A stretch of 32,000 nt of DNA from Candidatus Synechococcus calcipolaris G9. GTDB lineage: Bacteria; Cyanobacteriota; Cyanobacteriia; Thermosynechococcales; Thermosynechococcaceae. Within the stretch, counting starts at the first letter, position 1. The number at the start of each line of letters is the position of its first letter. The notes under the pieces are model-generated. The model ran no database searches. It was not told the DNA's origin and saw only the letters and a list, made by a program, of their open reading frames with translations. A program made the position numbers and the translations under genes. The stretch spans positions 1,886,942 through 1,918,941 of the forward strand of contig NZ_JAKKUT010000002.1 of the NCBI RefSeq assembly GCF_029582805.1. The letters are read 5' to 3'. Positions 3,558-23,754 of this stretch are shown piece after piece.

Positions 3558-4769
3558 ATGGCGATCGCTTCCCAGACATTGATCACGGCTGAACTGAGCA
3601 ACGCCCTAGACCAAGGGTGGTTAAACCCGGCCCACGCCCAGCCACTCCTAGAACAGGCCTACCAATGTGCCTCTGCCTTGGTAGATAGGTTAGACCCATT
3701 AGATCAGCTACCGCCCCTTCTCCAGGATGTGCAGAGGAGTGCCGATCACCTCCGTCACCGTCAGGTGGGCGATCGCGTCACCTATGTGATTAATCGAAAT
3801 ATTAACTTTACTAATATCTGTGAGCAGCACTGTGGCTTTTGTGCCTTTCGTCGCGATGCTAATACTCCTGGAGCCTACTGGCTCACCCCAGATGAAATTT
3901 TAGAAAAAACCGCCGCCGGAGTCGAGCAAGGAGCCACAGAAATTTGTATGCAGGGGGGGCTCAATCCAGAGGCAAAGCAAGGGGGGAGATCGCTGGCGTA
4001 CTATGTACAGTTGGTCAAAACCATTAAACAGGCCTTTCCCCAACTTCATCTCCATGCCTTTTCCCCCCAGGAAATTCAGTTCATTGCCCGTCAGGATGAT
4101 CTAGGCTACGAGCAGGTAATTGCCAGCCTCCAAGCCGCAGGGGTAGATTCCCTGCCCGGAACCGCCGCCGAGGTCTTAGTGGATCCCGTGCGCCGGATGA
4201 TCTGTCCTGAAAAAATCAATACGGCAACCTGGCTAGAAATTATTACTACCGCCCATCGCCTCGGCCTTTGGACCACCAGTACGATGCTCTCTGGTCATAT
4301 TGAAACTGCAGCGGATCAAGTTGCCCATTTAGCCCAGCTGCGACGACTCCAAGAGACGGCCCTAGAGCGAGGCTATCCCGGTCGTATCAGTGAATTTATT
4401 CTCTTACCCTACGTGGGAGAGCAAGCTCCCCGGCCGATGCAGCGTTTAGTGGGCCATTCCCAACCCCGTTTACTGCCCACCTTGATTTTGACGGCGATCG
4501 CCCGTTTAATGTTAGGATGCTGGATTCCGAATCATCAGCCCAGTTGGGTCAAATTAGGCCTAGCAGGGGCAACAACGGCCCTGAATTGGGGATGCAATGA
4601 TCTTGGTGGCACATTGATGGAGGAACATATTACAACCATGGCTGGGGCAATGGGCGGAACCGCAATGACGGTTAATCAGTTACGGACGGCCATTCACAGC
4701 CTAGGGCGATCGCCCCAGCAACGGACGACCTTGTACCATCTCCTAGGAGAGTCTTGTCATGCAGCCTGA
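3558..4769 (+). CDS. cofH: FO (7,8-didemethyl-8-hydroxy-5-deazariboflavin) synthase subunit CofH, radical SAM
   Basis: 403 aa. It has [16 protein letters not shown] (a CxxxCxxC motif), [13 protein letters not shown] and HLHAFSPQE, typical of the CofH/CofG/MqnC clade. Cyanobacteria use cofG/cofH for the photolyase cofactor. Confidence 0.7.
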
Positions 4770-6402
4770 GGTTCAAACCAATCCCATCCTCCCCCCCCGT
4801 CCCAACCGCAAACCCCTGATCTGGCTGGGTGTCGGTCTAGCCACCGTAGCGATCGCCGCTGGTGTGGGCTACTGGGCCTGGCAACGGATGCTCCGAAAAT
4901 CTCTCCCAGCGGGTATGTCCCTGGTGCCCCAATCAGCCCTGTATACCCTGTCTGTGTCCACGGTTCCTGAGCATTGGCAACCCCTAGCCGATCGGGATAT
5001 TCTCAAGGCCCTCCCCTGGTTAAATCAATCCTTTGGACCGGTGGATCAAGAGGGGGTGAACATTGCCAATATTGATTATCTCAGGGATATTCGCCCCTGG
5101 ATTGGGGATCAGGCCACCGTGGCCGTCCTTCCCATTTCCCCAGAGACGGTGCTAGGTTCCCCAGAGCAGCCCCAGGTGTGGGTTGTCCCCGTGATTGATG
5201 TTCCTGGGGCCCAAACTTTGCTACAACGCTATAGCCAAAACCCCATTGAGGAAGTTGGTGATGCGGTGATCTATGAAGCCCCGGACTTTATTGGCGATAG
5301 GATAGGAGGCGGTAATCGCAATGGGGCGATCGCCCTAGTCCGCCACGATGATAGTCCCTACTTAGTTTGGAGTAATATCCCCGCCACCCTGCGCCAAGTG
5401 ATTATGACCAGTAAACAGGGGGATTCCGTGGCGGATTTACCCCGATATGCAGCGGCGGTGGCAGACACAACGACATCGGGGCAACGTTTAGCGGAAATCT
5501 ACATTAACGTACCCGCCCTTTTGGGATATACCCGTAGTGGAGATGGGGATAGCGCAGATGGGGCTAATGCCGCCGGTCTGGGCAATGACCTCCAGGGCTT
5601 TGTCGCCTCGGTGAGTTTACAACCCAATCAGGTGAACCTCCAGGCCGTTACCTGGTTGCCCGCCAATAGCGATCGCGCCTTGGTTCCAGAAACACGGGTA
5701 CAAAACCTCAGCGATCGCCTGCCCCAGGATACCGCCTTCTTTTACAGTACGGGGAATACCCAACAGTTTTGGCAAAACGCACCGGACGGGCTGCAAAAAT
5801 CCATTGGCAGCGGCCTCAAGGATATGACGGGACTTGATTGGCAAACGGATTTTATGACTTGGCTGGATGGGGAATTTGCAGCGGCGATCGTACCAACCCA
5901 ACGTCAATACCCAGCCTTTGGTCTAGTGTTCTTAGCGGAAACCAGCGAAGATGCCCGCGCCAATGGGGCCCTGAGTCAACTAGATCAGGCCATGGGCGAT
6001 CGACTGCAATGGATGATCGACCAGAGTACCCAGGATGACCTGACCGTAACCACCTGGAAAATTCCGCCGGGTTTGCCCGTGGCCTACCATGGCTGGTTGG
6101 ACAATCGCACCCTCTTTTTAAGTTTGGGCCCCGCCCTGATGAATCAGTTGGTACCACCGCCCCGGCCCTCCCTCGGTCAATCCCCCCTGTTTCGTTCTGT
6201 CATTACCGCAAATAGTAGTAGCCAGCTATTTATCAATTTCAGCGATTTGGGCAGACTAACCAATAGTCCCCTATTGCCGGAGTTGGGAGGTAATCTGCGC
6301 CAGTCCCTCGCTCCCATTCAGGCCCTAGGGATGAGTAGTACCATTCGGGATGCGAATAGTAGTCGTTATGATGTGCGAATTCTCCTCCATCCTGATGAAT
6401 AA
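4759..6402 (+). CDS. Conserved cyanobacterial membrane-anchored protein (DUF3352-like)
   Basis: 547-aa ORF with a single N-terminal TM segment ([22 protein letters not shown]). It contains HIP1 sites and overlaps the end of cofH by 11 nt. The DUF label comes from memory of its size and taxonomic pattern only. Confidence 0.5.
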
Positions 6403-17632: not shown

Positions 17633-18694
17633 ATGGTGGCCACCGCGATCGCAACATCCACAATCCTGCAAGTAGAGCAGGTTAGTAAAGCCTTTGGTGA
17701 TTTCCAAGCCCTGACGTCCGTTAGTCTAGACCTCCAGCGAGGTGAAATTCTTGGATTACTGGGCCCCTCCGGCTGTGGCAAAACTACCCTTTTACGCTTG
17801 ATTGCGGGTTTAGAGCGGCCCGATAGTGGCAGGATGATCATGGGCGATCGCATTATCTCAGATACCCATACCTATATTCCGCCGGAACACCGCCGTTTAG
17901 GGATGGTCTTTCAGGATTTTGCCCTCTTCCCCCATTTAACCATTGCCCAAAATATCGCTTTTGGCTTGCAGCAACAACGACTGAAGCCCTCAATTATTCG
18001 GGAGCAGGTGGCAGCGGTCTTGGGGTTGGTGCGTCTTCAGGGATTGGAGAAGCGTTATCCCCATGAACTATCGGGGGGGCAGCAACAGCGGGTGGCCCTG
18101 GCCCGGGCCCTAGCTCCCCAACCGGATTTAATTTTATTAGATGAACCCCTCAGTAATTTAGATGCCCAAGTACGGCTGGAATTGCGGGAAGAGTTGCGGG
18201 CAATTTTGAAACGGGCCGGAATCACCACCATTTTTGTTACCCATGATCAAGAAGAAGCCCTGAGTATGTCCGATCGCCTTGCGGTCATGCGCCAAGGGAA
18301 GGTGGAGCAGTTGGGAACCCCGGAGGATATCTATCGCTATCCGGCATCCCGCTTTGTGGCGGGGTTTGTTAGTCAGGCTAATTTTATCCCTGCCGCCGTT
18401 GAGGGCGATCTCCTTCAAACGGATGTGGGGGCGTTTTGCCTATTAACAGAAGCACCGGGTCAGCGGGGGGAAGTAATGATTCGGGAAGAGGATATGGTCT
18501 TGGAAGCCAATGAGGAGACGGGCCTGATCATTGCCGATCGCCAATTTTTGGGCCGGGAATATCGCTATTGTCTAGCCACACCCTCTGGCCAAGAACTCCA
18601 TGCCCGTTTACCCGTTGAATTTTCGTTTCCGGTGGGTACATCCGTGCAAATTTCGGCGGCGGCGGATGCGGTGCGCTTTTTTCCCGTAGATTAG
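17633..18694 (+). CDS. ABC transporter ATP-binding protein (FutC/PotA-type importer ATPase)
   Basis: 353 aa with Walker A GPSGCGKTT, Q-loop, signature LSGGQQQRVALARAL, Walker B LILLDEPLSNLD, H-loop VTHDQEEA and a C-terminal TOBE-like regulatory domain. No permease or binding-protein gene is adjacent. Confidence 0.88.
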   Translation: MVATAIATSTILQVEQVSKAFGDFQALTSVSLDLQRGEILGLLGPSGCGKTTLLRLIAGLERPDSGRMIMGDRIISDTHTYIPPEHRRLGMVFQDFALFPHLTIAQNIAFGLQQQRLKPSIIREQVAAVLGLVRLQGLEKRYPHELSGGQQQRVALARALAPQPDLILLDEPLSNLDAQVRLELREELRAILKRAGITTIFVTHDQEEALSMSDRLAVMRQGKVEQLGTPEDIYRYPASRFVAGFVSQANFIPAAVEGDLLQTDVGAFCLLTEAPGQRGEVMIREEDMVLEANEETGLIIADRQFLGREYRYCLATPSGQELHARLPVEFSFPVGTSVQISAAADAVRFFPVD

Positions 18695-18708: not shown

Positions 18709-19368
18709 ATGGTTGCCAAAGCCAACGTTCACCCTGCTGATGCGGCCAGAGCCAAGCTGATGGGCCAACACCTGCAAGATCGCCTTGGGGACGTAGGGAT
18801 TCACTATCGTACCCAACTTCAGCAGCGGGGGTTTAGTCGTCGTCAGGTACAGCGGATCTATCAGGGGGAAATAGAGTCCCTTCGCCTAGAGACCCTCACC
18901 GCCCTAGCCAAGCTCTTTGATCTATCGGCTTGGCAACTCTTGCAGGAACTTGAAGCCGTTGCTATCTCCACCAACCCCCAGGGGCGATCGCCCCACTTGG
19001 ACGTAGAACCATCCTCAGAAACTTTCCTACGGCAAACCATCCAACGCCAAGCCCTAGAGACCCTAGAATCATTTTTGCGCTTTTGGCCCACCGCCGCCTA
19101 TGCCGCCCAACAAAATCCAACGGCTCCAGCGGTAAAACTCTTACCTCTGATAAAACCCGTGATGACGCTGCTATCGGATTGGGATGTGAGGGCGATCGCC
19201 GAGGTGGGGGCTTGGGTCAACTTTGATCCAACACTGCACCAAAGTGGAGTCCCCGATCTTCCCCCAGGTACAACAGTGCGAGTTACCCATCAGGGCTATG
19301 TGTGGGGAAATCCACCCCGATTACTGTTTCGGGCCCAAGTGGTGCCTGGGCAAAACAATAGTCCCTAA
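18709..19368 (+). CDS. Hypothetical protein with a putative N-terminal HTH and a GrpE-like C-terminal segment
   Basis: 219-aa ORF containing a HIP1 site. [38 protein letters not shown] resembles an XRE-type HTH. The C-terminal [23 protein letters not shown] resembles the GrpE beta-domain signature. The assignment is weak. Confidence 0.4.
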
Positions 19369-19606
19369 CAATTTCTCCCCCTAGGAGATGCTCTTGCAGG
19401 ATCCGTTCAATGACCTGGGGTGTTGCCGAATGATACCAAACCCGATCCGGATAAATCAGTAGGATGGGCCCCCGTTGACACACCCGTAAGCAATTCGCCT
19501 TTGTACGATACATACAGAAGGCAGGTTCTGCCTGGGGACGATCTAGACCTAGCTCCCGCAGACGCTTTTTAGATAGTTCCAAGACTCCAAGTCCACTGCC
19601 AATCAT
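19283..19606 (-). CDS. Thioredoxin-like [2Fe-2S] ferredoxin domain protein, apparently lacking the N-terminal cysteine pair (possible 5'-truncated fragment)
   Basis: 107 aa. [46 protein letters not shown] matches the C-terminal half of Trx-like ferredoxins (CxxxCxxGP...YPdgvWY...HL..G). The upstream C-X12-C half is missing from this ORF. Confidence 0.55.
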
Positions 19607-19646
19607 TTTAGGAGGGGACGGTCATGGGGGCAAAAAATCCCTATAA
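19595..19646. repeat. Left copy of an imperfect direct repeat of about 50 bp flanking the protease gene
   Basis: ACTGCCAATCATTTTAGGAGGGGACGGTCATGGGGGCAAAAAATCCCTATAA aligns with 20667-20715. By hand alignment 42 of 49 positions are identical, with one 3-nt indel. Confidence 0.7.
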
Positions 19647-19672
19647 TTCATTATTAGAGCGCAGTGCAAGCT

Positions 19673-20494
19673 ATGGCGATCATCCAGTCTAAAAAAGAGA
19701 TCGTGTGCGATCCTGTGAATGAATGTGCTGAGAAGATTGGTAAGCAATACCTACCATGTGTAAGGCCGATCTATGGGAGCACAATCACAGGCGTTCCCCA
19801 GCTAATTGGAACTTGCTTTCTCATGCGGTGGAAAAATACGTCTTTTCTTGTCACCGCGGCGCACGTCATTGATGAGAATGAGTCGTCAACGCTGTATGTA
19901 GGAGTTCGCGACACGCTTGTTGAAATCGTCGGTGATTTCCACGCCACTAACAAGCCCATGGCGCAGCGAAGTAACGACCGTTACGATTTTGCCTTTCTAA
20001 AGGTGACGAAACAATTTCATGCAACATTAGGAGATGTTTCATACATTGAATGTAATGCAATTTCTCAGAAGCAGGTAGATTCTCATGGTCGTGTGTATAT
20101 GGCAATGGGCTACCCTGCTTCGCAAAACAAGAAGGTTAATGTAGTAGAGAAATCTCTAAAGCCCAAGATTTGGAAATATTGGTCTACGGCAGCTTCCATG
20201 ACCAATCTAGCACAGGAGCTTGACGTCAGCGGCTCGGATCACGTGTTCATTACATACAACCACAAGCAATCTCGCAATTTCGAGGGAAGCATAATTAACT
20301 CCATAAAGCCGCATGGAGCTAGTGGTGGTGTGCTCATCGACCTTGGAATGCTGGGACTAAAGAATTTGGCACCCGATTTCGAGTGCGCCGGACTTGTTGC
20401 AGGTGTGCTTATTGAGGAGCATAAAAACCATAACGCTATCGTTGCGGTGAAAATTGGGCCTGTCCTTGATGCTATGGAGAAACATGCGCTCTAA
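19673..20494 (+). CDS. Trypsin-like (S1/Trypsin_2-type) serine peptidase, orphan
   Basis: The ORF track gives 19664..20494 with a GTG start; an ATG lies at 19673. Catalytic-triad contexts are visible: FLVTAAHVI (His), RYDFAFLKV (Asp) and KPHGASGGVLID (Ser). The gene is AT-richer than its neighbours and contains no HIP1 site. Confidence 0.7.
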   Translation: MAIIQSKKEIVCDPVNECAEKIGKQYLPCVRPIYGSTITGVPQLIGTCFLMRWKNTSFLVTAAHVIDENESSTLYVGVRDTLVEIVGDFHATNKPMAQRSNDRYDFAFLKVTKQFHATLGDVSYIECNAISQKQVDSHGRVYMAMGYPASQNKKVNVVEKSLKPKIWKYWSTAASMTNLAQELDVSGSDHVFITYNHKQSRNFEGSIINSIKPHGASGGVLIDLGMLGLKNLAPDFECAGLVAGVLIEEHKNHNAIVAVKIGPVLDAMEKHAL

Positions 20495-20666
20495 CAATCG
20501 CATCGGGCTGAAGTATTTGTTATCAATCCGCTGGGGATGATGCCTGATGTTAGACCCTACCAGTGAGTTCTAGTTTTTCGTTCATCTCATATCTGGGTTG
20601 GTCGTTGGGGAATAAGACATGGAGTTTCTCAGAGAACGATTTCTCTCCTATCCTTACATTTTTAGG

Positions 20667-20715
20667 ACTACCCATTTTGGAAGGGGACAGTCAGAGGGGC
20701 AAAAAATCCGTATAA
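20667..20715. repeat. Right copy of the imperfect direct repeat of about 50 bp
   Basis: ACTACCCATTTTGGAAGGGGACAGTCAGAGGGGCAAAAAATCCGTATAA; see the left copy at 19595-19646. Confidence 0.7.
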
Positions 20716-20882
20716 AACGCCAATAAGACACCAATATAAGAAAAATTATACAGAAAATTTCCGTATAATATCTTCATGGGGATCATTATATTCATGATGA
20801 AAAAATCCGTGGGATTACGGAACTGCAAACCCTAAGGATGTTCTAGGGTAAGAATATGCTGATTAATGGAAATACAAATTTA

Positions 20883-20945
20883 TTGTGAACATTTGTAGCG
20901 GGGCAGGAATTTGTCGTCTATGGTATGACAGTGGACTACAACCAT
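20883..20945 (-). pseudogene. Candidate detached 5' fragment (21 codons) of the Trx-like ferredoxin gene
   Basis: Own translation from the ATG at 20945 gives MVVVHCHTIDDKFLPRYKCSQ then a stop. It contains the C-X12-C spacing expected for the first two cluster ligands and ends in KCSQ. The 19606 fragment begins (M)IGSG, which together resembles the C-A-Q-R-G-S region of Trx-like ferredoxins. It is divergent from the V4R gene, with 15 nt between the two start codons. Confidence 0.35.
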
Positions 20946-20960
20946 GGGTGAGAATTTGAC

Positions 20961-21650
20961 ATGACATCGACCCTTCCAAAGCGACCGCACCATCTCCAGG
21001 CAGCCCACCCCCAGCGGCGGCATCACTTTAGCCTCAAGGACTTTTTTGAGTACGACTCTAGCCTGGGTAGCATTACCGACTGGCATCAATCTCGTCAGGT
21101 ATTGGTCACGGAAGATTTTGTGATTGGACTTGTTCAGGGCCTCGAAGAAGAAGTGGGTTCTGCCTCCGGCTTAGTGATGTACAAAGTTGGGGAGGTGTGG
21201 GGACAAAAGGATGCCCAGGTTTTCCAAAAACATTTTGAACAGGAGTACGAACGAGAACTCCGCCGCACGGCCCTAACGTTCCTCCTAGAAGCCTGGTGGT
21301 GGCCCTTTGTCAGTGAAGGTTGGGGCAACTGGGAAGTGGATCTGACCGAGCAACGAAATGGTTTTATGTTCATTAATATTTTTGATTCCGTCGTGGCCCG
21401 TACCCTAGGGGATGTGGGCAAGCCGGTATGTTATCTCTATGCAGGTTTGTTTGCCGGATTTTTTACGGAACTCATTCAAAAGCCCCTAGGTTGTATTGAA
21501 ATCCAATGTTATGCCATGGGTGAAACCTATTGCAAATTTTTAGTGGGGAAACAGGATCGGATTGATGCCGCTACCTTTTGGCAAAACGAAGGGGCGACCA
21601 CCCGAGATATTGAAAAACGCCTGCGTCAAGGAGAATTAATTAAAAAGTGA
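20961..21650 (+). CDS. V4R (4-vinyl reductase) domain protein
   Basis: 229 aa with FSLKDFFEYDSSLGSITDW...VLVTEDFVIGLVQGLEEEVG. The C-terminal CYLYAGLFAGFFTELIQKPLGCIEIQCYAMGETYCKF is the Cys-rich V4R signature. Confidence 0.8.
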   Translation: MTSTLPKRPHHLQAAHPQRRHHFSLKDFFEYDSSLGSITDWHQSRQVLVTEDFVIGLVQGLEEEVGSASGLVMYKVGEVWGQKDAQVFQKHFEQEYERELRRTALTFLLEAWWWPFVSEGWGNWEVDLTEQRNGFMFINIFDSVVARTLGDVGKPVCYLYAGLFAGFFTELIQKPLGCIEIQCYAMGETYCKFLVGKQDRIDAATFWQNEGATTRDIEKRLRQGELIKK

Positions 21651-21778
21651 TGATCGTCCTTCCTGCAACTTGAGATGTCCTATAAGTTGAGGTGATTATC
21701 AGCCATTGACCCCACTATTCCCCAAACTTTTCTCTGTTGAGTTATGTCATCTGGTTCTTTTTAGGAGTTAAAAAACAT

Positions 21779-22252
21779 ATGTTAAAACAACTGAATCGTT
21801 TAGCCCTCGATGCCGATGGCCGCTATGCCACGGCCAGTGAGCTTGCTTTTCTTAAGGACTACTTGGCCACCATTGAACCGCGCATCAGTGCATACCAGAA
21901 GATCCGCGAAGAAGGTGAGATTATGGCGGATAAAATTCAAGCCCGTCAGAAAGCCCAAAATGTGAATTGCTTTACCTTCAATAACCAGGATCAATCCTCC
22001 ATTTGCCGTCGGGATTTGGTGAATGCCATTCGTTTGAGTGCAACTGCCGTTCTTTTTGGTGAACTGGATCTATTGCGGGATAATTTTCTGCTGTGGTATC
22101 GCACCATTGTCAAGGCTTTTAACTATGAAAATATGGCCCGCTCCACCTACGGAAAGATTTTGCCCGAATTGATGAAGGCCCTGCTTGATCCCGCAGAAAA
22201 TAAAGTGACTCAGCCCGTTCTCCAACTTAATGCGTCTATCCTATCGGATTAG
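21779..22252 (+). CDS. Phycobiliprotein-like (phycobilisome protein family) globin-fold protein, paralog 1
   Basis: MLKQLNRLALDADGRYATASELAFLKDYL...SICRRDLVNAIRLSATAVLFGELDLLRDNFL. The CxRD...lR...l.G(D/E) pattern corresponds to the Cys84 bilin-attachment region. The ATG at 21779 is preceded by TAGGAG; the ORF-track start at 21737 is less likely. Confidence 0.75.
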   Translation: MLKQLNRLALDADGRYATASELAFLKDYLATIEPRISAYQKIREEGEIMADKIQARQKAQNVNCFTFNNQDQSSICRRDLVNAIRLSATAVLFGELDLLRDNFLLWYRTIVKAFNYENMARSTYGKILPELMKALLDPAENKVTQPVLQLNASILSD

Positions 22253-22316
22253 TAGCTGATTGGTTAAGATGGGATCATGCACAGATTCCATTCAGGACTG
22301 GGAAAATCATTTTCTT

Positions 22317-22787
22317 ATGTTGAATCAGTTAAATCGTCTCGCAATTGAAACCGATGGTCGGTATGCCAGTGTATCGGAACTAAAGTTCGTCAAAGATTAC
22401 CTGGCATCCATCGACCTACGGATTAGTGCCTATGAAAAAATCCGCGATGCTGAGGATCAAATCGTTGATCACATTGAAACTCAGTTAAAGTCCCATAACC
22501 CCAAGTTTTTTCAAAAGGGTAAACAGGACTACAGTGATATTTGTCGCCGCGATCGCAAAAGTGTATTGCGTTTATCTACAACGGCCATGCTGTTTGCGGA
22601 TCTCGATTCCCTGCGGGATGGCTTTTTACTCTGGTATCGCACGATTATTAAAGCTTTTAAGGATGAAAAAGCAGCCCAAGTGACCTATAAACTCCTCCCT
22701 GCTGTTGTCACCAAAGTATTAACCCCAGAGGAAAATAAGTTGATAGAGCCGACATTAGAACTCAGTCGCTCCATTCTTGGGGAATAA
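22317..22787 (+). CDS. Phycobiliprotein-like (phycobilisome protein family) globin-fold protein, paralog 2
   Basis: MLNQLNRLAIETDGRYASVSELKFVKDYL...DICRRDRKSVLRLSTTAMLFADLDSLRDGFL. The start was chosen by alignment with paralog 1. The ORF is open from 22260, so the start is uncertain. Confidence 0.7.
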   Translation: MLNQLNRLAIETDGRYASVSELKFVKDYLASIDLRISAYEKIRDAEDQIVDHIETQLKSHNPKFFQKGKQDYSDICRRDRKSVLRLSTTAMLFADLDSLRDGFLLWYRTIIKAFKDEKAAQVTYKLLPAVVTKVLTPEENKLIEPTLELSRSILGE

Positions 22788-22820
22788 TAGGCAAAGAACC
22801 TCTGACTGAGGGAGTTATCA

Positions 22821-23270
22821 ATGCAGACCCAGGCTGAATCTATCGCACTCTATGACACCGACTTCTATGGGTGGATCCAGGAGCAGGGGGCACTCCTCCG
22901 CTCAGGGAAATTTGACCAACTCGACCTTCAGCATCTCATTGAGGAAATTGACTCTTTGGGCAGACAGGAGCAGCGGGAACTTCGGAATCGCCTGGGCATT
23001 TTGCTCGGTCATCTGCTGAAATGGCACTATCAACCCAAGGGTCGCAGCAAAAGTTGGCGGGCCACTATAGGAGAGCAGCGACGACGGATTTTAGAACATC
23101 TTAGCGAAAACCCAAGTCTGAAACCTTATCTAGCTACGGCGATCGCCAAAGCCTATGGGGATGGACTTGATTTGGTTGACCGAGAAACACCCCTGAACCC
23201 CCAAGAGCTACCTCGAACCTGTCCATTTTCCCAGGCTCAAATCTTTGAGGAATCGATAGAATGGCCCTAG
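22821..23270 (+). CDS. DUF29-domain protein, tandem copy 1
   Basis: 149 aa. LYDTDFYGWIQEQGALLRSGKFDQLDLQHLIEEIDSLGRQEQRELRNRLGILLGHLLKWHYQP is the canonical DUF29 N-terminus. Confidence 0.85.
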   Translation: MQTQAESIALYDTDFYGWIQEQGALLRSGKFDQLDLQHLIEEIDSLGRQEQRELRNRLGILLGHLLKWHYQPKGRSKSWRATIGEQRRRILEHLSENPSLKPYLATAIAKAYGDGLDLVDRETPLNPQELPRTCPFSQAQIFEESIEWP

Positions 23271-23310: not shown

Positions 23311-23754
23311 ATGCAAACCCAGGCTGAATTGACTACGCTCTATAACACCGACTTCTATGGGTGGATCCAGGAGCAGGGGGCACTTCTCCGCGCCAGGAAA
23401 TTTGATCAACTCGACCTTGCCCATCTCATTGAGGAAATTGAGTCTTTGGGTAGACAGGAGCAGCGGGAACTTCGGAATCGCCTGGGCATTTTGCTCGGTC
23501 ATCTGCTGAAATGGCACTATCAACCCAAGGGTCGCTCCAAGAGTTGGCGGGCCACCATACGGGAGCAGCGACAGGAGATTCGCCGTCATCTCAAAGAGAA
23601 TCCCAGTTTGAAACCCTATCTAGAGGAAGCAATCACGATTGGATACGAGAAGGGACTTCATCTAGTGGATCGGGAAACGCCCCTGGATCCCCAAGAGTTA
23701 CCCCCATCCTGTCCATTTTCTCAGATTCAAATCTTTGAGGAGCCGATAGATTGA
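23311..23754 (+). CDS. DUF29-domain protein, tandem copy 2
   Basis: 147 aa, a close paralog of copy 1. The two share an 84-nt run of perfect identity (22962-23045 and 23452-23535). Confidence 0.85.
   Translation: MQTQAELTTLYNTDFYGWIQEQGALLRARKFDQLDLAHLIEEIESLGRQEQRELRNRLGILLGHLLKWHYQPKGRSKSWRATIREQRQEIRRHLKENPSLKPYLEEAITIGYEKGLHLVDRETPLDPQELPPSCPFSQIQIFEEPID

Follow-up and report, generated by a model that had tools for sequence, protein, structure and literature searches.

What is the short minus-strand open reading frame (ORF) at 19283-19606 of the 32,000-nucleotide (nt) stretch of Candidatus Synechococcus calcipolaris G9 analysed here (the window), which reads like the end of a thioredoxin-like [2Fe-2S] ferredoxin? 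An initial annotation proposed that it is one half of a ferredoxin gene split by an insertion of about 1.3 kb, the other half being a 21-codon ORF further upstream. The organism is a carbonate-forming cyanobacterium, and four of its proteins, MDG2991686-689, all encoded on a single 1.94-Mb contig, correspond to the ABC ATPase, HTH, protease and V4R genes of the window. Our conclusion is that the locus is not a split gene, an intron or an intein; very probably it is an inactivated, 5'-truncated and frameshifted second copy of a ferredoxin gene, lying at a junction of rearrangement and acquisition. A truncated ferredoxin pseudogene is a known and ordinary kind of feature. Two features are central to this reading:

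19283-19603, minus strand: presumed ferredoxin pseudogene remnant, codons 34-139 plus the stop codon of a 139-amino-acid (aa) thioredoxin-like [2Fe-2S] ferredoxin
19566-19570, minus strand: site of the frameshift; its five-A run (CTAAAAAGCG) is one base short of the AAA CAA CG of three intact genes

The initial annotation was right that the ORF is a fragment of a thioredoxin-like ferredoxin carrying only the second cysteine pair. It runs for 107 codons, from an ATG at 19606 through the native stop codon, and a protein database search with it returned 1469 relatives, nearly all of them cyanobacterial and 125-170 aa in length. A hidden Markov model (HMM) made from 120 family members was run on all stop-to-stop six-frame pieces of 19200-21100 (124 pieces), and the piece carrying the ORF (19621-19286) scored 149 bits over HMM positions 49-134. 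Members of the family have an N-terminal RHIFLCADQTKPKCC followed by WDYLKxRLKELGLDRP; C23, C31, C71 and C75 are invariant in 120 of 120, and C32 is found in 116. The match of Pfam PF01257 to the remnant is sub-threshold (E=0.02, 15 bits, with a gathering threshold of 24.8), and that of NCBIfam fdxn_Clost (E=1e-10) is also under the cut-off of the model. Although PF01257 falls short, the family is assigned to the thioredoxin-like [2Fe-2S] ferredoxin lineage, because its cyanobacterial profile aligns with residues 5-101 of Aquifex aeolicus Fd4 (1F37/1M2A) with E=3e-12.

Similarity to the intact 139-aa orthologues gives out near 19603, at codon 34 of 139, and in both tblastn and DNA alignments against contigs L001 and L083 from relatives and against the G9 paralogue in L091 (75%, 88% and 88% DNA identity, respectively) it ends at 19602-19606 throughout. 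Only the C-terminal two-thirds of the domain therefore match. The remnant retains C71-x3-C75 (CLRVC) and the GP(I/V)xxxYPDGVWY motif, and C23, C31 and C32 are gone, so that of the four cysteine ligands of a functional family member C71 and C75 alone are present. In addition, position G87, a glycine in 118 of the 120 family members, is an arginine.

Nor is the frame uninterrupted. Aligned at the DNA level with the intact genes of L001, L083 and L091, the window copy shows a deletion of one base at 19566-19570 in every comparison. On the 3' side of this site the ferredoxin reading is carried by frame -2, and 5' of 'KKRLRELGL' the homology found by tblastn goes on for 12 residues in frame -3 (19602-19567); the frame -3 piece at 19602-19552 scores 7.8 bits against the family HMM. 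The same frameshift-site sequence is present in the Logan assembly contig L084. Because the deletion shifts the frame, the MIGSG start of the ORF is an artefact, its first 13 residues being read out of frame from an ATG that is part of a flanking repeat (copy A, described below). Since the central β1 strand and the first cysteine ligands are both missing, the remnant is predicted to be unable to bind a [2Fe-2S] cluster in the manner of a normal family member, and it is probably non-functional.

An ORF that starts with the ATG at 19606 and stays open as far as the native stop codon might nevertheless be a live new gene, in which the repeat donated the ATG, the 1-nt deletion restored the frame, and the 107-aa protein acquired a new role, for example as a dimerising or partner-binding half-domain. 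The ratio of nonsynonymous to synonymous substitution rates (dN/dS) of 0.16-0.17 is far below 1, as would be expected on this proposal, and the Logan gene caller does predict the ORF as a gene. However, such a protein would be without the central β1 strand and two to three invariant cysteines, would have arginine in place of G87, and would begin with 13 residues translated out of frame. The ORF has no Shine-Dalgarno sequence, and its promoter-like matches are at chance level (2, with 3.0 expected). The G9 protein accessions go straight from the HTH protein (MDG2991687) to the protease (MDG2991688) with none between, which suggests that the G9 annotation does not count the 107-aa ORF as a protein, and no 100%-identical 107-aa protein was among the matches of the protein database search. 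A recent truncation would, moreover, equally give a low dN/dS. We therefore consider a live new gene very unlikely. Its fuller form, in which G9 expresses a 107-aa 'half-ferredoxin' under purifying selection (dN/dS about 0.16-0.27), with the repeat supplying the start codon and possibly a promoter, is judged jointly with the cassette proposal discussed below, and is quite improbable.

The interpretation as a second, inactivated copy is supported by an intact ferredoxin elsewhere in G9. This is P0001 (MDG2991442.1 / WP_277867310.1, 'ferredoxin', 139 aa), and its gene adjoins MDG2991443, a PIN/TRAM gene, which is the neighbour that the ferredoxin ancestrally had upstream. The P0001 gene and the remnant are 88.4% identical over 259 nt, with about 85% aa identity across codons 34-139. 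Their nucleotide identities to L083 are 83.8% and 84.9%, lower than to each other, and 24 informative sites group P0001 with the remnant, against 15 and 12. Because they are mutually closer than either is to L083 and the informative sites agree, the two are taken to be paralogues born in the G9 lineage. The dN/dS between paralogue and remnant is 0.16, compared with 0.04-0.075 for pairs of intact genes, which indicates a relaxed constraint on the remnant that is mostly recent; judged by these ratios, the window copy was evidently under constraint for most of its history and lost its function fairly recently. Probably the duplicate worked as a full-length gene for the greater part of its existence and was truncated late, by rearrangement or insertion. 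The functional thioredoxin-like ferredoxin of the organism is MDG2991442, and not the window locus.

Where, then, are the first 33 codons? The 21-codon ORF that was put forward as the missing half lies in the following context:

20796-20960, plus strand: native V4R upstream region, matching the ancestral ligA-V4R spacer; it holds the 21-codon ORF (20883-20945, minus strand)
20961-21650, plus strand: V4R-domain gene MDG2991689, followed by two phycobiliprotein-like genes and preceded in relatives by ligA

This ORF is present at 20945-20883 and reads MVVVHCHTIDDKFLPRYKCSQ-stop, just as it was described, and a protease gene does lie between the two ORFs on the opposite strand (Trypsin_2, E=2.6e-8). 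On the proposal of a single gene interrupted by a mobile or intron-like element of about 1.3 kb, the peptide would supply a C-x12-C first ligand pair. Its VVVHC...C pattern recalls C9-x12-C22 of Aquifex Fd4, as the initial annotation observed, and Fd4 is matched by the family profile (see above); foreign DNA does separate the two ORFs. Yet the first cysteine motif of the family is C-x7-CC (FLCADQTKPxCC), invariant in 120 of 120, and not C-x12-C. About 33 codons are missing, for which a 21-codon piece is too short, and the piece is unrelated: it scores -1.1 bits against the family HMM and ranks 16 among the 124 six-frame pieces, so that its likeness to a ferredoxin N-terminus appears to be at chance level. 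Positive scores in 19200-21100 are confined to the main ORF and the frame -3 piece, with the pieces of 19604-21100 at noise, and no 5' half is found. A scan of 19200-21100 against Rfam at E<=1 gave neither an intron nor any further RNA family, and the insert has no transposase.

The DNA around the 21-codon ORF has a clear origin of its own. Logan ERR14790933 represents a close relative with a V4R protein 97% identical to that of the window, and there V4R is preceded by ligA. Positions 3881-5946 of its contig L085 align with window 20796-22849 at 88.6% identity, the homology beginning at the ligA stop codon and then running through the ligA-V4R spacer. The counterpart of the 21-codon ORF there reads MVVVHCHTIDDKFLPCYNYSQLICISFNGIFLP*, with Cys19 replaced by Tyr and the stop codon by Leu, and this relative keeps an intact ferredoxin at another locus (contig L083), where PIN/TRAM and ferredoxin run in one direction and meet HTH and ABC running in the other. 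A second, more distant relative (L086) likewise has ligA upstream of V4R, and in none of 80 more distant relatives is V4R within 6 kb of the ferredoxin. Given that the same DNA lies upstream of V4R in a relative with ligA as the neighbour and the ferredoxin intact elsewhere, the 21-codon ORF is not the 5' half of the ferredoxin, and is a fortuitous sequence within the native V4R upstream region. The idea of a ferredoxin 5' fragment divergent from the V4R cluster is likewise contradicted by the conserved spacer in L085 and by the PIN/TRAM gene upstream of ferredoxin in relatives. What survives of the initial annotation is a ferredoxin fragment abutting foreign, protease-bearing DNA; its split gene is refuted by the spacer alignment, the HMM scores and the L085 version of the ORF, and we regard it as extremely improbable.

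It is worth adding that other candidate pieces of the missing N-terminus were tried and rejected. The string 'ICISINQ' (20879-20859), read as 'ICLGINQ' (residues 9-15 of P0002), scores -0.6 bits against the family HMM and belongs to the conserved V4R spacer, L085 having ICISFNG. The string 'IHRIAHDLFFRLDDRHSLHC' (19720-19661), read as 'INQIQHHLFLCADQTKPLCC', scores 0.1 bits, has no DNA homology to L083, L001 or L091, and is the antisense of the protease N-terminus. Finally, 'RPLLK*' as a decayed 'KPLCCD' has 9 of 24 nt in common by our count, which is chance level.

Between the remnant and the V4R upstream region lies DNA of a different kind:

19604-20795, no strand assigned: foreign junction segment, 1192 nt, 44% GC; its left limit is the end of ferredoxin homology and its right limit the ligA stop codon, where spacer homology starts
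19604-19646, no strand assigned: copy A of a 43-bp direct repeat, directly abutting the end of ferredoxin homology; its last three minus-strand bases are the ATG of the MIGSG ORF
19673-20494, plus strand: trypsin-like serine protease gene MDG2991688, 273 aa (273/276 codons), Pfam Trypsin_2 E=2.6e-8
20673-20715, no strand assigned: copy B of the 43-bp direct repeat, 178 nt 3' of the protease stop codon

From left to right, the segment opens with repeat A and the protease gene; a 178-nt stretch then leads to repeat B, after which 80 nt of AT-rich DNA, holding a palindrome, complete it. The segment has no counterpart in the ferredoxin or V4R loci of relatives. Alignment across both junctions, which the initial annotation had suggested, does bound a foreign segment at 19604-20795, whereas the flanks are not contiguous as one gene in relatives: the left flank runs into the ferredoxin 5' end and PIN/TRAM (L083), and the right flank into ligA (L085, L086). 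The insert was also described as AT-rich and free of HIP1 sites. Its GC content is indeed lower than that of the whole window (44% against 49%), and HIP1 is absent, although with 1.7 sites expected in 1.2 kb this absence is not significant. The segment contains no transposase, integrase or terminal inverted repeats, and its sole sizeable ORF is the protease. A 14-nt inverted repeat flanking the protease coding sequence is at chance level (about 0.5 expected, by our own estimate).

The protease is 100% identical to G9 protein P0121. It has only 33 homologues, the next best being 47% identical, and no close cyanobacterial orthologue. These homologues occur near phage-type integrases, a reverse transcriptase, RNase T and AbiEi, and also on proteobacterial plasmids and one phage contig. 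In L090 (5001-9509), for example, a few genes separate a homologue from a reverse transcriptase of 580 aa, RNase T and AbiEi, and in L087 (1720-5346) another lies between phage-type integrases. The family may form part of uncharacterised defence or mobile modules; proteases of PADLOC defence systems have a weak, domain-level similarity to the window protease (E about 1e-5). The neighbours of the homologues are not conserved, and no remnants of them are found in 19604-20795. In our reading the protease would be accessory cargo, horizontally acquired, whose vehicle is no longer recognisable.

The two copies of the 43-bp repeat (CATTTTRGRAGGGGACRGTCAKRGGGGCAAAAAATCCSTATAA) are 86% identical, and occur twice in the window where none would be expected by chance. 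Its 14-nt core, GGGGCAAAAAATCC, is unmatched in L083 (ferredoxin locus), L085 (V4R locus) and L091 (G9 paralogue locus), and an exact-pattern scan of JGI metagenome contigs for the core gave no matches. Because the core is absent from these three loci and the copies are placed asymmetrically to the two junctions, the repeats are not target duplications. The two copies do not fold stably into a common structure (z-scores -0.4 to +1.4), and by inspection they contain no GTTRRRY/RYYYAAC integron cores, with no dedicated attC model applied. The proposal that they mark a new small integrase-less cassette that moved the protease gene, alone or alongside expression of the half-ferredoxin, is quite improbable, this being the joint judgement referred to above. 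An 11-nt string, ACGGATTTTTT, is common to repeat B and the native hairpin at 20800-20810 inside the V4R spacer, and in our view hints at microhomology at the right junction.

Several further observations concern this part of the segment. The motif TTATACGGATTTTTT (minus strand) occurs four times: in both 43-bp repeats, and as related 15-nt motifs at 20754-20768 and 20800-20814. One of the copies belongs to the native hairpin of the V4R spacer, which may be a further sign of junction microhomology. The palindrome is a near-perfect one of 25 nt at 20745-20769 (ATTATACAGAAAATTTCCGTATAAT), with half-sites that resemble the repeat motif and TATAAT inside it, and 20735-20830 folds unusually well (z = -3.7). 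An operator or promoter located 5' of V4R and borne by the foreign segment is one possible role of the palindrome.

Could the joining of remnant, protease and V4R be a chimera of the assembly, for instance through the repeats? The separate Logan assembly of SRR17798921 matches the region at 100% identity in two contigs, L084 (window 19345-20661) and L082 (20643-22884), which overlap by 19 nt. A break at 20643-20661, near repeat B, and the fact that the Logan contig with PIN/TRAM and the paralogue ends within the stretch shared with the remnant, are what a misassembly might leave. But L084 runs across the left junction and through all of the protease gene, L082 takes in repeat B together with the right junction, and the truncation point and the frameshift lie within one contig. 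We therefore regard a chimera as very improbable.

On its left side the remnant faces two genes that belong with it in relatives:

17633-18694: ABC ATPase gene MDG2991686, which together with the HTH gene forms the conserved downstream synteny block
18709-19368, plus strand: HTH-domain gene MDG2991687, convergent with the ferredoxin remnant

Contig L083 is collinear with the window through ABC, HTH, DoxX and MscS. In relatives the gene upstream of ferredoxin is PIN/TRAM (ycf81-like) and not V4R, and no piece of the 2.4 kb upstream of ferredoxin in L083 is found anywhere in the window. A DNA scan of genome contigs gave only relatives, at 66% identity or less. The HTH gene and the remnant overlap convergently by 86 nt (19283-19368), and the identical overlap is present with the intact ferredoxin in relatives (L001 375-460, L083 2682-2767); the 3' end of the ferredoxin is therefore doubly constrained. 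Gene order differs between G9 and its relative of about 88% identity at every locus examined (L091, L092, L083, L085), which indicates frequent rearrangement in the G9 lineage. In the relative, for example, V4R has ligA as its neighbour, and NUDIX and ligA come after the methyltransferase; in G9 the methyltransferase leads into DUF6825 and ABC1.

The right side also deserves comment. Between these species, which are about 88% identical genome-wide, the ligA-V4R spacer (window 20796-20960, L085 3881-4046) has few mismatches, and directly after the old ligA stop codon it has a TCCGT-loop-ACGGA hairpin. The spacer may be the regulatory 5' region of the V4R / phycobiliprotein-like operon. After the phycobiliprotein-like genes come tandem DUF29 genes at 22821-23270 (149 aa) and 23311-23754 (147 aa), with Pfam E values of about 1e-50; the more distant relative L086 has PRC-barrel and DciA genes in place of this pair.

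The analysis shows where the window copy was cut and frameshifted, that an intact paralogue survives beside PIN/TRAM, that the DNA around the 21-codon ORF is native to the V4R locus, and that the protease is sporadically distributed; the order of events that follows is inferred. The ancestral layout, seen in relatives, has PIN/TRAM and ferredoxin convergent with HTH and ABC, and separately ligA followed by V4R and the phycobiliprotein-like genes. The ferredoxin gene would have been duplicated in the G9 lineage, and one copy (MDG2991442) would have stayed intact with PIN/TRAM. From the copy beside HTH-ABC, a later rearrangement would have removed codons 1-33 and the neighbouring gene upstream. 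This rearrangement would have joined the cut ferredoxin, via the 1.19-kb protease segment, to the V4R operon, which was simultaneously parted from ligA; the cut in the V4R spacer falls almost precisely on the former ligA stop codon. The 1-nt deletion would have come afterwards.

Some points weigh against this account. The remnant still has a dN/dS much lower than 1, and the deletion brings the ferredoxin frame into phase with the ATG of repeat A, for which reason we allow a small chance that a short product is expressed. The NCBI assembly of G9 and the Logan assembly agree, but both may derive from one set of reads.

For annotation, the locus should be described as a ferredoxin pseudogene, and not as a split or novel gene. 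Beyond this it matters little: it records one lineage-specific junction of rearrangement and acquisition in a heavily rearranged genome. There is a caution here for reading from sequence only, in that a short ORF with two cysteines beside a truncated metalloprotein gene can mimic a missing half by chance.

How does the locus compare with known systems? Synteny with the slr0144-slr0152 gene set of Synechocystis had been offered in support of a split ferredoxin. The window likewise has a V4R gene and two phycobiliprotein-like genes; however, the V4R neighbour in close relatives is ligA and not a ferredoxin. The ferredoxins of that set are plant-like (slr0150) and adrenodoxin-like (slr0148) (PMC4284462), and because neither is thioredoxin-like the argument does not apply. 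With Aquifex Fd4 (PF01257) the likeness is in the match of the family profile, and in the C-x3-C pair and GP(I/V)xxxYPDGVWY motif that the remnant retains. In contrast to Fd4, the intact cyanobacterial members have C-x7-CC in place of C-x12-C as the first pair and carry about 20 additional N-terminal residues, and the window copy is without the first pair altogether and is frameshifted. With the intact G9 paralogue and the orthologues P0154 and P0002, the window agrees in the downstream HTH-ABC synteny of the orthologues, whereas the intact genes begin 33 codons earlier, directly after PIN/TRAM, and the window copy has lost both. A further parallel is with ordinary pseudogenes at junctions of rearrangement or acquisition, which show the same 5' truncation, frameshift and intact copy elsewhere in the genome, and the same adjacent, lower-GC accessory gene with homologues on plasmids and in integrase, reverse transcriptase and Abi neighbourhoods; what sets this one apart is a segment that lacks a transposase, an integrase and terminal inverted repeats and is bracketed, asymmetrically, by imperfect 43-bp direct repeats.

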